This document shows, one piece after another, positions 14,990-21,162 of a stretch of 64,000 bases of DNA. Source of the DNA: a virus. Lineage: Duplodnaviria > Heunggongvirae > Uroviricota > Caudoviricetes. The stretch lies in IMG/VR virus record IMGVR_UViG_2541047759_000001; one strand, written 5' to 3'. How positions within the stretch are numbered: position 1 is the first letter of the stretch; the number at the start of each line of letters is the position of its first letter. The position numbers and the translations under genes are program-made. The notes under the pieces are model-generated. The model was not told the origin of the DNA. It saw only the letters and a program-made list of their open reading frames with translations, and made no database searches.

Positions 14990-15249
14990 TTAGTTTCCTT
15001 GTTTATGTCTTGCTGGTGATGTTCTGAAAAGTATAAATGATATTTTTGAATGTAAACCATAGAGCAGAATTATTTTTCTGATGTTGTTTATTGTTTATTT
15101 AAATGCAGGGTGGTTTATATCTCGTCTTGTAGTTTATCCATGCATATCTGCTTGATGATGAGGTTTTTATTTAAGGTATGGTTTTGTGTTTTTTCTGTAT
15201 TACATGTCAGGTATTTTAAAGAATTATTTTTCAGATGGTGGAAAGAACC

Positions 15250-17211
15250 ATGGCATTTAAACACTATGATGTTGTCAGGGCGGCATCGCCGTCAGACCTT
15301 GCGAAACGACTGACACAAAAACTGAAGGAGGGGTGGCAGCCATTTGGCAGTCCGGTGGCCATCACGCCTTATACCCTGATGCAGGCCATTGCGGCGGAAG
15401 GTGATGTCACCACACCTGTGGTGGTGAAGCCGTCGGATGGAGAAGGCGCAGTTATCAGCACCACCAGCAACCCGGAGTATTACTTTGTTGTTGCCCTGGC
15501 CGGGCAGTCAAACGGTATGGCGTATGGTGAAGGGCTTCCGCTGCCGGAGACATATGACCGTCCGGACCCGCGTATTAAACAGCTGGCGCGTCGCAGCACT
15601 GTCACGCCGGGTGGTGCGTTCTGTAACTACAATGACATTATTCCTGCGGACCACTGCCTGCATGATGTTCAGGATTTGAGTAAGTTTTCACACCCGAAAG
15701 CCAGTGCAGCTCAGTATGGATGCGTGGGGCAGGGATTACATATCGCGAAGAAATTGTTGCCGTTTATTCCGGCGAATGCCGGTATTCTTCTGGTTCCGTG
15801 CTGCCGTGGTGGTTCTGCATTTTTGGCGGGCGATGAAGGTACCTTCAGCGAATCCACCGGCGCAAGCGAGACCTCGGCACGCTGGGGTGTAGATAAGCCA
15901 CTGTACAAGGACCTGCTTACCCGTACTCAGGCCGCACTGAAGGCCAACCCTAAAAATATTCTGCTTGCAGTGGTCTGGATGCAGGGCGAGTTTGATTTGA
16001 AACAGGGTGCATACGCCACCCAGCCGGGGCTGTTTGATTCCATGGTGGAAAAATATCGTTCTGACCTGTCGGAATTCGGAGGTCAGTGTCTCGGGGGCTC
16101 TCCGTCATCGGTTCCCTGGATTTGTGGCGACACGACCTACTACTGGAAGCAGACTTATTCTTCGCAATACGATGCGGTGTATGGTGCATACAAGACGAAA
16201 TCCGCAAAAAAAATCTTCTTTGTGCCGTTTATGACGGATGAAAACGGGCGAAATGTGGGTACCAACGAGCCGTCAGAAGATCCGGATGTTGCGGATATTG
16301 GGTATTACGGAGCCGGTGGTCGAACGGACGCCAAAACCTGGACGACGGCTGACCGTAAAACGCATTTTGGATCATGGGCACGTCGTGGGATTATTTCCGA
16401 CCGTCTGGCAACGGCGATTCTTGTGCATGCCGGGAGAAACGCTGAATTCATTACCGGAAAACAGCCTGATACGGTGAAGCCCACCGGACCTTCCGGTGAA
16501 GGTACGGAGAGAGAGCCGGAAGCCCCGGTCAGTAACCGAACCCTGATGAGTCTGCTGGCGTCCGGCGAAGACCTGGCATCACAGGGCTGGCGCTATTATC
16601 ACAAACCGGCGAGCGGAGACAATGTTAACAAAAACATTGCTGAAGCGGTGGTCAGTGATGCGGGGGCTACGGGAGGTAAGGCCCTGCAACTGAATAAACC
16701 GGAAAACCACATCTGGTTTCTGGAGCATGATGCAGCCGGACAGGGAGTGGAGTTACTGAAGAAGGGGGGACGTGTGAGCGTACGGTTTAAGTTGCCGGGT
16801 TCACTGGTGCCGAATCAGTTTGCCCTGGGCATTTACTGGCAGTTGTCGTCCCTGCCGGAGGGAGTGACGCTGGCAGAGGAAGGCAACGACATGCTGATGT
16901 CCTTCTTTCTGCAGACGGATGCGACGAACCTGAACGCGATGCACCACAAGAAGCCGAATGCGAAGCTGGAAACGTTCGGGGTCTTTGATAACGGATGGCA
17001 CACACTGGCTTTTGAGTTTGCCGGAAACAACAGCATTCAGGTGACGCCGGTACTGGATGAGAAACGGGGGACGCCGTTCACACTGGTGAAATCTCCGGCA
17101 TCAGGGGCGGCGGACAAACTGCAACTGACAGGCATATCAAAGGCGGCGACATATACGCTGCTGATTGACAGTGTGAAGGTGGAAGTGAACAACGCGGACA
17201 TCGCGGCATGA
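15250..17211 (+). CDS. Phage NanS-p-like protein: N-terminal DUF1737 plus SGNH-type esterase domain
   Basis: 654 aa; N-terminus 'MAFKHYDVVRAASPSDLAKRL...EGWQPFGSP' as in Stx-phage NanS-p esterases. Confidence 0.75.
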   Translation: MAFKHYDVVRAASPSDLAKRLTQKLKEGWQPFGSPVAITPYTLMQAIAAEGDVTTPVVVKPSDGEGAVISTTSNPEYYFVVALAGQSNGMAYGEGLPLPETYDRPDPRIKQLARRSTVTPGGAFCNYNDIIPADHCLHDVQDLSKFSHPKASAAQYGCVGQGLHIAKKLLPFIPANAGILLVPCCRGGSAFLAGDEGTFSESTGASETSARWGVDKPLYKDLLTRTQAALKANPKNILLAVVWMQGEFDLKQGAYATQPGLFDSMVEKYRSDLSEFGGQCLGGSPSSVPWICGDTTYYWKQTYSSQYDAVYGAYKTKSAKKIFFVPFMTDENGRNVGTNEPSEDPDVADIGYYGAGGRTDAKTWTTADRKTHFGSWARRGIISDRLATAILVHAGRNAEFITGKQPDTVKPTGPSGEGTEREPEAPVSNRTLMSLLASGEDLASQGWRYYHKPASGDNVNKNIAEAVVSDAGATGGKALQLNKPENHIWFLEHDAAGQGVELLKKGGRVSVRFKLPGSLVPNQFALGIYWQLSSLPEGVTLAEEGNDMLMSFFLQTDATNLNAMHHKKPNAKLETFGVFDNGWHTLAFEFAGNNSIQVTPVLDEKRGTPFTLVKSPASGAADKLQLTGISKAATYTLLIDSVKVEVNNADIAA

Positions 17212-17567
17212 TAAAAAAAGCCGCCAGCGGCAGGAATGGAAGCTGGCGGAGGTAATCCCAATGGAGAATGTAAAGAAAAGATGCTTTCGACATCAATCAT
17301 TTCTAAATGAAAACAGTTCTCATTGTCAACCATAACGGTAAGAAATTATGACATTTATTCATCAGGTAATGCTGTACTTCTGTATGGCAGTCTGTGTTAT
17401 GTATCTTCTTTCGGGTGGGTACAGGGCAGTGCGCGATTTCTGGCGCAGGCAGATTGATAAAAGGGCCGCTGAGAGAATCAGCGCCAGTCAGTCAGCCGGA
17501 AGCAAACCCGAAGATCCGCTCATTCCGTAGTCACTTTCTTGACAACACCTTTCAACGAGAAAATCCC

Positions 17568-17889: not shown

Positions 17890-18105
17890 ATGTACCAGAT
17901 GGAAAAAATCACAACAGGTGTGTCATACACCACGTCAGCGGTGGGAACGGGCTACTGGTTCCTGCAGTTGCTGGACAGGGTTTCCCCGTCTCAGTGGGCG
18001 GCAATAGGCGTGCTGGGGAGTCTGCTGTTTGGGCTGCTGACGTACCTGACTAACCTGTATTTCAAAATCAAAGAGGACCGGCGTAAGGCGGCGCGGGGAG
18101 AGTAA
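17890..18105 (+). CDS. S: Class II holin, S21-type pinholin with dual start
   Basis: Two close Met starts (MYQMEKI); '[51 protein letters not shown]' matches the S21 family. Confidence 0.75.
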
Positions 18106-18109
18106 AGTG

Positions 18110-19000
18110 ATGAATAAAAAATATGAACTGGTTGTTAAGGGGATAAATAATTACGGGGATAAGGTTACTGTTACTGTGAAGTCGGAAGGTGACGGGCAAG
18201 CGTCGCTGTTGTTGCCAGATGTGGCGATTAGTCTTGACCGTACTGAAGGTGCCACGCTGGAGTTTTACGAAGCTGAGGCGAAAAAGCAGGCGAAGCAGTT
18301 TTTCATGGATGTTGCTGCCGGGTTATGTGAATGGAACGAACCGTTGCCGGAAAAGCGCCCCGTAATTTTAGAGGCGCAGGATGTGTTGATAACCTACAAA
18401 GGAAAGCTACCGGGAAGAATTACTTGTTCTCTGAAGATGCCGCCGTCAACACTGCGGTCAGAAAAAGATGATGTTGAATCACGTATTGAAAAACTGGAGA
18501 GCTACGTCGTTGAGCTGAATAAGAAATGGTCGATATTGGTGCCTTCTGGCGATGAAAAGCAGTTTGCTGCGTTTGACGATTATTGTCGGAAAGTGATGAG
18601 CAGAAATCTCGCAGAGTGTTTCAGTATTCATAATGATAATTTCAGTGACCCGGAATGGGAGTGTAACCGGCCATCCTTTGTTGTATCCGGTGATGCTGGG
18701 AAAATAACCATCTCAGAAAATGGGAAAGTAACACCTCCATCGCACCAGCACAGTGAGGAGCTCATTGAATTTGCCATTGATTACCTGAAGAACAATAAAA
18801 AGCAGGGGCTGATGAAGCGCGTTGGCCGTTGCATGGGATATCTTCAGGTAGCCGCTGAGATTGAAGCGCTGGCCAGTGGTGCTGATAAGGATGCAATTGT
18901 GCGGGAGGCTCTTCTTCGTGATTTTAATACTCCACCCTTTAAAAAAGTGCCGGCTTACTGGCTTCATCCGGGGCTGACTTATCTTAAAGTGCGTATTTAG
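18110..19000 (+). CDS. Unrecognised 296-aa soluble protein inserted between holin and endolysin
   Basis: GGGGAGAG RBS, ATG 5 nt after the holin stop; no TM segment or signal peptide; no family recognised. Confidence 0.7.
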   Translation: MNKKYELVVKGINNYGDKVTVTVKSEGDGQASLLLPDVAISLDRTEGATLEFYEAEAKKQAKQFFMDVAAGLCEWNEPLPEKRPVILEAQDVLITYKGKLPGRITCSLKMPPSTLRSEKDDVESRIEKLESYVVELNKKWSILVPSGDEKQFAAFDDYCRKVMSRNLAECFSIHNDNFSDPEWECNRPSFVVSGDAGKITISENGKVTPPSHQHSEELIEFAIDYLKNNKKQGLMKRVGRCMGYLQVAAEIEALASGADKDAIVREALLRDFNTPPFKKVPAYWLHPGLTYLKVRI

Positions 19001-19036: not shown

Positions 19037-19570
19037 ATGAACACCAAAATCAAATACGGCCTGTCGGCTGCCGTTCTGGCGCTGATTGCCGCTGGTGCGC
19101 CTGCGCCTGACATTCTCGACCAGTTTCTGGATGAAAAGGAAGGCAACCACACCACGGCATACCGTGATGGTGCAGGTATCTGGACCATCTGCCGTGGTGC
19201 CATCATGGTGGATGGCAAACCTGTCGTTCCGGGCATGAAGTTGTCGAAGGAAAAATGCGACCAGGTTAACGCCATTGAGCGTGATAAAGCGCTGGCGTGG
19301 GTGGAGAAAAACATCAGAGTGCCGCTGACCGAACCCCAGAAAGCGGGGATCGCGTCATTCTGTCCGTACAACATTGGTCCCGGTAAGTGTTTCCCGTCGA
19401 CGTTTTACAGACGAATTAATGCTGGTGATCGAAAAGGTGCCTGCGAAGCGATTCGCTGGTGGATTAAGGACGGTGGCAGAGACTGCCGTATTCGTTCAAA
19501 CAACTGTTACGGTCAGGTATCCCGTCGTGACCAGGAGAGCGCGCTGGCGTGCTGGGGTATCGACAGATAA
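19037..19570 (+). CDS. R: SAR endolysin (phage lysozyme with N-terminal signal-anchor-release domain)
   Basis: 'GLSAAVLALIAAGAPA' SAR segment then 'DEKEGNHTTAYRDGAGIWTICRG' lysozyme catalytic region. Confidence 0.85.
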   Translation: MNTKIKYGLSAAVLALIAAGAPAPDILDQFLDEKEGNHTTAYRDGAGIWTICRGAIMVDGKPVVPGMKLSKEKCDQVNAIERDKALAWVEKNIRVPLTEPQKAGIASFCPYNIGPGKCFPSTFYRRINAGDRKGACEAIRWWIKDGGRDCRIRSNNCYGQVSRRDQESALACWGIDR

Positions 19571-19726
19571 GCAGAATATTTTGCTGAAAAATGAGGAATG
19601 GCCACGCGGGCGGATAACACGAAATCCTGCGAACTGGCGAAACGTAAGTGAATAAAAGTAAAAACCCCGTTTGTTGGCACCAAGCGAGGTTTTGTGTTTC
19701 TGACCTTGAGTAAGGCAAGGGAGAAC

Positions 19727-19909
19727 ATGGCGAAGTGTAAACGAATTCTGTTGAGGTTGACTATGAAAAATGGCCTTGAACTGAAAGCGCCTGTAACTGA
19801 TGACATCAGCAGAGCACTGGCTTTTGCCATTAAGTGGGTGGCGGTCGGTGTTGCTGTGTCCCCGATGCTGTATGGGCTGGCAAAACTGGTCATTGCGTTG
19901 AAATCGTGA
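19727..19909 (+). CDS. Small protein with C-terminal hydrophobic segment, between endolysin and Rz
   Basis: AAGGGAG RBS before ATG at 19727; C-terminal '[22 protein letters not shown]' hydrophobic stretch. Confidence 0.5.
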
Positions 19910-19923
19910 AGGGAGGATTAAGC

Positions 19924-20055
19924 ATGTCAGACAAACTCATAACGCTGGCGAAGATCCTCTGTGTAATTGTCGGCATTTCATTTTCACTAATGCTGGTTGC
20001 TCTTTTTCTTTCCATGGCCTGGATGATGTTGTCTTCGTCGGGGTTGCTGGGGTGA
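19924..20055 (+). CDS. Small membrane peptide (43 aa), between endolysin and Rz
   Basis: GGGAGG RBS before ATG at 19924; single TM '[26 protein letters not shown]'. Confidence 0.5.
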
Positions 20056-20525
20056 ACATAAACCGAATGCTTTCCGCGTTTATCGTTATTCTGCTGGTGG
20101 CCTGTGGTGCGCTGTGGATGGCAACAGACCATTACCGTGATAACGCGATTACCTACAAAGCGCAGCGCGATAACAAAGCCAGTGAACTGAAGCTGGCGAA
20201 CGCAACCATTACTGATATGCAGGTGCGCCAGCGCGATGTTGCTGCGCTCGATGCAAAATACTCGAGGGAATTAGCCGATGCGAGAGCTGAAAATGAAACT
20301 CTTCGCGCTGACGTTGCCGCTGGTCGTAAGCGCCTGCGGATCAACGCCACCTGTCCAGGCTCCGTGCGTGAAGCCCCCACCACCTCCGGCGTGGATAATG
20401 CAACCGGCCCCCAACTGGCAGACACCGTTACACGGGATTATTTCACCCTCAGAGAGCGGCTGATGACGATGCACAAGCAACTGGAAGGGGCACAGGACTA
20501 TATCCGCACTCAGTGCCTGAAATAA
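20052..20525 (+). CDS. Rz: Rz i-spanin (start may be the ATG at 20067)
   Basis: N-terminal TM then '[14 protein letters not shown]...[25 protein letters not shown]' matching lambda Rz. Confidence 0.85.
20278..20463 (+). CDS. Rz1: Rz1 o-spanin lipoprotein, embedded in Rz in the +1 frame
   Basis: Lipobox 'LVVSAC', proline-rich '[22 protein letters not shown]' as in lambda Rz1. Confidence 0.8.
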
Positions 20526-20835: not shown

Positions 20836-21162
20836 ATGAAAAGACGCCTTTTACTACTTTTTCTGTTATCTGTCCTGGCAGTGGGATGCTCGCAGCAAAA
20901 AGCTGATGAGCCCCGGCAATTAGTGACGGTGTATCCACGATATCCGGAATATGCTGCAGCAAATTATATCAAGGGGCTGGTTGAGGTTAAGTTCGATATT
21001 GGTGCTGATGGGACTGTGACACGGATCGTTTTTCTCCGCTCAGAGCCTCATAATTTGTTTCGTGATGAAGTGGTGAAGGCCATGGCGAAATGGCGATTTG
21101 AAAAGAATCGCCCCTGTCAGGGAGTGAAGAGACAATTTATCTTTACGCCGTCACGTCCTTGA
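20836..21162 (+). CDS. Lipoprotein moron downstream of the lysis cassette
   Basis: Signal peptide with lipobox 'LAVGCSQ'; 108 aa. Confidence 0.6.
   Translation: MKRRLLLLFLLSVLAVGCSQQKADEPRQLVTVYPRYPEYAAANYIKGLVEVKFDIGADGTVTRIVFLRSEPHNLFRDEVVKAMAKWRFEKNRPCQGVKRQFIFTPSRP

Follow-up and report, generated by a model that had tools for sequence, protein, structure and literature searches.

Two conserved small membrane-protein genes between the endolysin and spanin genes of lambdoid lysis cassettes in Escherichia coli

The lysis cassettes of lambdoid phages are treated as solved, with a holin, an endolysin and spanins, yet extra conserved membrane genes sit inside them, and the locus described here raises the question of what such genes are and what they may do. 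It lies in a 64,000-nucleotide (nt) stretch of a lambdoid E. coli prophage (IMG/VR virus record IMGVR_UViG_2541047759_000001; the whole stretch is referred to as the window and all positions are numbered in it). Two small open reading frames (ORFs), here called A and B, occupy the gap between the endolysin gene R and the spanin genes Rz/Rz1, on the plus strand as is the rest of the cassette (Table 1). An earlier note on this DNA, made from the letters of the sequence, had reported two ORFs of 60 and 43 codons at this place, each with a strong ribosome-binding site; both the coordinates and the Shine–Dalgarno sites (GGGAG before A and GGGAGGA before B) proved to be correct. The region 19500–20200 is 100% identical to many E. 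coli chromosomes.

Alleles of the two ORFs were taken from approximately 245 related loci, giving 35 distinct sequences for A and 33 for B, and the frame was open in every one of them with no internal stop or frameshift. The ratio of non-synonymous to synonymous substitution (dN/dS; pairwise Nei–Gojobori) was 0.19 for A and 0.32 for B in the proposed frames, and 0.75–2.2 in the other two sense frames of A and B; the phase-matched antisense frame gave 0.37 for A and 0.34 for B, with stops in 9 of the 33 B alleles when read in this frame. As a calibration, the same loci gave 0.09 for R, 0.09 for the holin gene and 0.44 for Rz. Each protein is matched over its full length by a PHROG cluster, A by phrog_1115 (residues 1–60) and B by phrog_4906 (residues 1–43). 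The earlier note had proposed a single membrane segment for each product and had named lack of conservation, combined with absence of translation in ribosome profiling, as grounds for dismissing the ORFs; one membrane helix is indeed predicted in each, by structure models and by hydropathy, and both ORFs are conserved across the related loci, always open and with a dN/dS below 1. A and B are real, conserved protein-coding genes under purifying selection.

About one in three complete E. coli genomes carries A or B: A was found in 1598 of 5426 (1913 places) and B-like DNA in 1750 of the same set (4658 places, with at most 11 per genome). The earlier note had stated that R and Rz are usually adjacent. 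This holds for the prototypes, such as the Qin prophage of K-12 in which the gap is empty and the two genes abut, but fails as a general rule since an occupied gap is common in E. coli. Among phage records, tblastn identified B in 276, mostly from Shiga toxin (Stx)-converting phages and often unannotated; A is in only 12, PhiR12 and PhiR5 phages included. Both genes are present in the PhiR12 and PhiR5 series, for which the recorded hosts are K-12 or E. coli C, and phages carrying A together with B are therefore viable. By protein-database names, A occurs in Escherichia and Salmonella, with one partial entry labelled Pseudomonas, and B in E. coli only; a scan for A of one genome per species yielded no confirmed match, so the taxonomic range given here rests on these names and on the loci that were fetched. 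A search of 1.84 billion representative proteins with a hidden Markov model profile of A returned only 21 matches, all of them tiny and with the same layout, which leaves the A family without a link to any characterised family. No papers on A or B were found in searches by accession, PHROG identifier and lysis-cassette terms. The observation made in the earlier note is confirmed and turns out to apply more widely than that note had recognised, and the genes are already catalogued, both as hypothetical proteins in RefSeq (A, WP_001446668.1; B, WP_001280932.1).

ORF A has two potential starts. GGGAG lies 3 nt 5' of ATG19727 (Met1), and GAGG lies 6 nt 5' of an internal ATG19763 (Met13). The dN/dS is 0.76 for codons 1–12 and 0.14 for codons 13–60. 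Given that the first 12 codons are near-neutral and the remainder constrained, that Met13 has its own GAGG and that many database entries of A begin there, the sequence suggests that A is made mainly from Met13 and that its main product is probably 48 amino acids in length, not 60. In a Salmonella relative, VEAN replaces LRLT before Met13 and GGAGG still precedes this Met. We considered whether A might be a holin-like dual-start gene, both starts having a Shine–Dalgarno site, but a regulated long form is unsupported because codons 1–12 evolve almost neutrally.

The AlphaFold model of A (predicted local distance difference test score, pLDDT, 74) has helices at residues 2–14 and 23–59, and A is predicted from it to be a tail-anchored protein with a short basic cytoplasmic head bearing an MKNGLE..AP motif and helix 23–59 as its C-terminal anchor; only one to three residues extend past the helix. 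Residues 22–60 form the conserved core, and the product ends in ...ALKS. The hydropathy maximum of the anchor is 2.11, close to that of the holin helix (2.09) and of the signal-anchor-release (SAR)-like segment of the endolysin (1.99, at residues 9–23). Members of the A family with approximately 40–50% identity keep both the architecture and the motifs.

ORF B encodes little besides a single 37-residue hydrophobic helix, modelled by AlphaFold at residues 2–38 (pLDDT 89) with about 5–12 residues beyond it; its Kyte–Doolittle hydropathy maximum, KD(15), is 2.85 and residues 1–28 are nearly invariant. The GGGAGGA of B, a strong Shine–Dalgarno site, is 7 nt 5' of ATG19924. At the other end, the stop codon of B overlaps a GTG start of Rz (GTGA), both in the window and in more than 100 related loci, by virtue of which B would be produced together with the i-spanin. 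This GTG20052 is probably the true start of Rz and gives the protein an arginine ahead of its membrane helix, which other Rz proteins also have (MNR...); the RefSeq start, ATG20067, leaves no charged residue before the helix. In Stx phages, 7 nt separate the stop of a B variant with the C-terminus ...RVLTLSGLVG from the ATG of an Rz beginning MNRVLCVV, and in phiP27-like cassettes a B-like gene of 44 amino acids ends 4–5 nt 5' of a gene for a 60-amino-acid lipoprotein. Throughout the junction survey, the B stop either overlapped the next envelope gene or lay 4–7 nt from it, in every locus. The C-terminal type of B co-occurs with the N-terminal type of Rz, and the remaining part of Rz recombines freely; A–B blocks that are 97–100% identical stand beside Rz bodies that are only 55–72% identical. 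The 3' end of B contains a G-rich stretch preceding the Rz start.

B and Rz share a [KR][IV]LCV[IV] stretch, and B was considered as a duplicated 5' end of Rz. This was unsupported: hhalign gave a probability of 0.65%, shuffled protein controls gave p-values from 0.001 to 0.88 depending on the pair, and the DNA similarity was equalled by 77% of codon-shuffled controls.

The content of the R–Rz gap varies. The common E. coli form is A–B (approximately 490 nt), and Stx phages have an antirepressor gene (Ant) followed by B (approximately 1000 nt), with B always 3' of the antirepressor gene and 5' of Rz in the Stx-phage loci examined. Phage vB_EcoS-569R3 has X–B–A'–Y, IMG/VR loci have A–B–A'–Y and A–Y, and Salmonella has A alone. 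A' is a 38-amino-acid A core whose GTG start overlaps the stop of B, and Y is a 28-amino-acid gene product (MSAELIRAMAFAIRIVAIAVLVWAIRWW) that is a paralogue of the A core (hhalign 87%, E=4e-6). A and B themselves are unrelated, hhalign giving a probability of 4% that they are paralogues. Database 'long forms' of 83–90 amino acids (P0091, P0094, P0097, P0100) were considered as a two-helix ancestral protein and are an artefact or a fusion instead: the 90-amino-acid forms arise where gene callers extend the A' frame through B in another frame, and the 83-amino-acid forms are rare frameshift fusions of B to A'. Such joint B/A database proteins (locus L003, 805–1077; locus L005, 3001–3252) inflate the apparent diversity of the family.

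Other lysis cassettes also harbour these genes, relatives of A being found next to Rz, on its 5' side, behind four holin/endolysin combinations besides that of the window, and a fifth cassette type having A without Rz. In Salmonella, A-family genes lie directly 5' of Rz behind a PF16080 holin with a PF00959 lysozyme, behind an S21-like holin with Ant, and behind a PF05106 holin with a GH19 endolysin. In phiP27-like cassettes (Phage_holin_8 with a GH108 endolysin), Rz is absent and A follows the endolysin gene; 3' of A there is a B-like gene, or a 49-amino-acid gene plus Y, and then the 60-amino-acid lipoprotein gene. Relatives of A also occur far from lysis genes, directly after tail-fibre or DUF4376 genes at prophage ends, and one of these, a Salmonella relative near tail-fibre genes (locus L246), has terminator-like hairpins on both sides. 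A and B are separately mobile, independently assorting accessory genes.

Table 1. Features of the lysis cassette, numbered in the 64,000-nt window
Feature	Position	Strand	Match or method
S21-type class II holin; first gene of the cassette	17890..18105	+	PF04971, E=6.5e-33
DUF1327/YdfR-family protein, 297 amino acids, between holin and endolysin; context gene	18107..19000	+	PF07041, E=1.3e-40
R21-like phage lysozyme with Gly/Ala-rich N-terminal SAR-like segment, YGLSAAVLALIAAGAPAP	19037..19570	+	PF00959, E=2.4e-24
R–A spacer, 156 nt	19571–19726		
Terminator-like hairpin with T-rich tail, in the R–A spacer	19660..19699	+	hairpin scan
ORF A, predicted small tail-anchored membrane protein, 60 codons	19727..19909	+	phrog_1115, E=3.7e-42
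ORF B, small membrane protein, 43 codons	19924..20055	+	phrog_4906, E=2.1e-23
Rz i-spanin	20052 or 20067 to 20525	+	PF03245, E=2e-47
Rz1 o-spanin lipoprotein, within Rz in another frame	20278..20463	+	PF06085, E=4.4e-20

The cassette around A and B has a holin with a dual start, with Met codons at 17890 and 17899 (MYQMEK), and the holin ORF is named 'class II holin family protein' at the identical locus in RefSeq. The cytoplasmic tail of the endolysin (MNTKIKY) contains two lysines. The spacer between R and A carries a hairpin which in most related loci is a perfect 13–15 bp stem of -19 to -21.6 kcal/mol; the allele in the window has one mismatch (-12.0 kcal/mol), and the loop bases vary by allele (GGCACC, GGCTGC, GGCAGC, GGCCGC). 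At this position Stx phages carry another hairpin, indicating that a stem–loop immediately 3' of the endolysin gene is retained irrespective of the cargo behind it. The spacer has no Rfam family and is overall not unusually structured (leader folding z = -1.1). A crude consensus scan found no sigma-70-like promoter in the spacer (19571–19726) and no promoter-like site on the minus strand at 19600–20100.

Several neighbouring features were noted in the window. The DUF1327/YdfR protein matches phrog_1085 over its full length (296/296); at the identical locus of strain 7/2, RefSeq has it as an incomplete YdfR-family pseudogene covering the first third only, and among related loci the gene occurs in many differing lengths. 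Positions 20836–21162, downstream of Rz where lambda has bor, encode a lipoprotein (lipobox AVGC) whose C-terminal domain is of the TonB type (PF03544); it falls in PHROG 1267, whose label 'Rz-like spanin' appears to be a mislabel. Upstream of the holin gene, the region 15235–17530 encodes a 658-amino-acid NanS-p-like esterase (DUF1737, SASA and DUF6645), as in Stx phages, and differs from strain 7/2 in which iraM occupies this place. A DUF1378 protein of 60 amino acids with a hydrophobic N-terminus (17348–17530) looks like a further small membrane protein.

Loci fetched for comparison added further observations. The phiP27-type cassette (Phage_holin_8, second holin, endolysin) is without a recognisable Rz/Rz1 and ends with a conserved lipoprotein of 60–62 amino acids (M.RKHWTHR...LVGC, with two more cysteines; locus L183, 3841–4023; phiP27 itself, locus L245, 3090–3278), which could be a candidate for the outer-membrane step; it is unannotated in the phiP27 record, in which gene L32 was assigned in a different frame and covers the start of the lipoprotein gene. 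In Salmonella chromosomes (4.55–4.59 Mb), a prophage remnant beside host genes (loci L260/L261, 3001–3601) is without holin or endolysin and has an A-like gene of 49 amino acids, ending RWW, 2 nt 5' of an Rz gene; this exact protein is indexed in 1647 blocks of an assembly collection. A GC-rich phage from a JGI metagenome (3300007140; locus L257, 2501–3685) has five tiny membrane-protein genes between a capsid gene and a SAR endolysin gene, two of them A-like, one pinholin-like (59 amino acids), one of 51 amino acids and one X-like (32 amino acids). An RWW motif ends several of these L257 proteins as well as Y and distant A relatives, which makes it look like a protein-level motif and not merely a ribosome-binding site for Rz.

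What A and B do was approached through comparison with known families. A, B, Y, the 49-amino-acid neighbour and the 60-amino-acid lipoprotein had no match in Pfam, NCBIfam or PADLOC; PHROGs 1115 and 4906, together with the related 4493 and 3246, are sequence clusters without an assigned function, and membership in them thus says nothing on mechanism. As S21-type holins or antiholins, A and B showed no Pfam match at E<=1, to PF04971 or otherwise, one helix each and no charged C-terminal tail, and the S21 holin role in this cassette is already filled by 17890–18105. As releasins they showed no DUF2730 match at E<=1, and the anchor of A is C-terminal; as spanins, no match to PF03245 or PF06085, no lipobox and only short tails after the helix; and as type I toxins, no match in Pfam to PF01848 (Hok/Gef) or another toxin family.

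Three accessory lysis proteins offer partial parallels. Lcc6 of the Shewanella phage LambdaSo is a transmembrane protein of 65 amino acids (transmembrane residues 5–22 and a 43-residue cytoplasmic tail) that is strictly required in a pinholin/SAR system and harmless when expressed alone (bioRxiv 10.1101/2024.01.23.576932). Like A and B it is a tiny single-pass protein of no known family, from a lambda-like phage with pinholin, SAR endolysin and Rz/Rz1; Lcc6 itself serves the inner-membrane step of lysis. Its gene, in contrast, is far from the lysis genes, near int/xis, whereas A and B are within the cassette; its helix is N-terminal, whereas A is reversed, with a cytoplasmic head and a C-terminal anchor, and B has almost no soluble part. 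Further, Lcc6 is essential for lysis and, as cassettes without A or B exist, these cannot be; the comparison made here is one of architecture. The Mu releasin gp25 (DUF2730) is needed for release of the SAR endolysin, and its family also occurs with cytoplasmic endolysins (PMC9239132). This accessory protein is tethered to the membrane but largely cytoplasmic, and its gene neighbours those of a SAR endolysin and spanins; A would likewise be a tethered cytoplasmic peptide near a SAR endolysin; the gp25 anchor is N-terminal, however, and Mu has no holin, whereas a complete S21-type holin is present here. Mu gp25 is also longer than A. In phage P2, with the cassette Y-K-lysA-lysB-lysC, the gene for LysA lies between the endolysin gene and the Rz/Rz1-like spanin genes; LysA is a non-essential membrane protein reported to affect lysis timing, and is larger than A or B with several membrane helices.

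The earlier note had suggested lysis regulators, antiholin-like factors or small membrane toxins. They are real and conserved genes for single-helix membrane proteins, on the same strand as Rz and packed with it; the functions themselves had been proposed from position alone. An antiholin specific to S21 is unlikely since the partner holin varies, A or B being also found behind PF16080/PF00959, PF05106/GH19 and Phage_holin_8/GH108 pairs, and since S21 keeps its own antiholin start. A role as lysis regulator is the best single guess, and the A relatives at the tail-fibre end fit moron genes equally well.

Our tentative preference, short of an even chance, is that A and B have a non-essential role in the membrane steps of lysis. 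Their transcription would depend entirely on Q-modified polymerase that starts at pR' and continues past the hairpin after R; both would be inserted with the N-terminus in and the C-terminus out, and their action, as dispensable accessory factors and not core lysis proteins, would fall late in the lytic cycle, at a step that may be hole formation, release of the SAR endolysin or spanin activation. By analogy, their mode of action would resemble that of Lcc6, Mu releasin or P2 LysA. In favour of a lysis role, A, B or Y turn up in lysis cassettes with widely differing components, and in the distant L257 phage the family lies on the opposite flank of the endolysin gene. B has lysis cassettes as its only setting and is coupled to the gene for the spanin, the scan found no promoter belonging to A or B, and Lcc6, the Mu releasin and P2 LysA are precedents. 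Several points weigh against it. Cassettes of the K-12 Qin type are complete without A and B, and any lysis role must therefore be dispensable; there is no homology to a characterised lysis protein in Pfam, NCBIfam or PADLOC; and neither gene is tied to a particular type of holin, endolysin or Rz body. Genes of the A family after tail-fibre or DUF4376 genes at prophage ends are typical of morons and not of lysis genes, and the GC content of A and B (49% and 46%) is lower than that of the holin gene, R and Rz (54–56%). The promoter scan, moreover, was a crude consensus search, and expression in a lysogen is possible.

Much of this evidence would be expected if A and B were moron-type cargo, namely inner-membrane proteins with a benefit apart from lysis at an R–Rz junction that merely tolerates insertions. 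This is a less favoured but serious possibility, and for an exclusion-type role in particular nearly as likely as a lysis role; the leading version is superinfection exclusion, at DNA entry or a membrane step of incoming phages, and the other is modulation of host membrane proteins. One site holds variable content in otherwise similar cassettes (A–B, Ant–B, X–B–A'–Y, A–B–A'–Y, A–Y or A alone; at least six gap architectures, with absence from K-12 Qin), the GC content is unlike that of the neighbouring lysis genes, a terminator-like hairpin is conserved upstream, and the family is split into many small paralogues (A, A', Y and the RWW-ending members). The tail-fibre end, where A relatives occur, is a classical site of moron and exclusion genes, and the gene at L246 is hairpin-flanked. 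Lambdoid morons such as bor and lom of lambda, and Ant in the R–Rz gap of Stx phages, are likewise optional genes at late-region junctions, of odd base composition and often encoding envelope proteins. Classical morons, however, have their own promoter and a downstream terminator, whereas for A and B the crude scan found no promoter that would serve expression in a lysogen, the hairpin is upstream of A and not downstream of B, and B runs into Rz. B was never seen outside a lysis cassette and is always packed against the next envelope gene, the L257 phage has the family within its holin–endolysin cluster, and no PADLOC defence model was matched.

It is improbable that the peptides matter little, with B (or Y elsewhere) a translated leader that brings ribosomes to the Rz start and A a drifting relic carried along by recombination. 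The constancy of the GTGA overlap or 4–7 nt spacing, the G-rich 3' end of B before the Rz start and a dN/dS for B far above that of the holin gene or R would fit such a leader, but among the sense frames dN/dS is well below 1 in the proposed one only, neither stop nor frameshift occurs in any allele of either gene, B is almost invariant over its first 28 residues and A strongly constrained over codons 13–60, the A family keeps its architecture and motifs at approximately 40–50% identity, and Qin-type cassettes translate Rz without a leader of this kind. Less probable still, and the least likely of the explanations considered, are small membrane toxins resembling type I toxins or holins, which on their own would depolarise the inner membrane or make it permeable. 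The size and hydrophobicity of the two proteins are like those of small membrane toxins, and the anchor of A is moderately hydrophobic in the manner of the pinholin and SAR helices of the cassette. Against this, there is no match to Hok/Gef, to any holin family or elsewhere in Pfam; the crude scan found no antisense promoter, no Rfam RNA or antitoxin partner was seen and the leader structure is ordinary; each protein has one helix without the charged C-terminal tail typical of holins; and the cassette already has a complete dual-start holin.

A bolder form of the lysis reading, which we regard as unlikely though worth stating, is that B together with the A/Y family represents a novel class of very small inner-membrane proteins that regulate the final steps of lysis. 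Such regulators might act as an 'anti-spanin' or as a chaperone of the spanin, with synthesis matched to that of Rz, or as an Lcc6-like cofactor of hole formation. Given that B precedes Rz in the Stx-phage loci examined, B would, if this were true, help to set the timing and completeness of lysis and hence the release of Shiga toxin.

The work on Lcc6 and on Mu releasin has shown that lysis can hinge on membrane proteins of very small size, and plaque-forming phages that carry both A and B and grow on K-12 are already in GenBank, so that testing would be cheap. If a lysis role is true, A and B would be additional accessory small membrane proteins of phage late operons; if either tunes lysis, this would have a bearing on the timing of Shiga toxin release and on the design of phage-based lysis modules; and if they are exclusion-type cargo, a widespread family would be added to prophage-encoded phage resistance.

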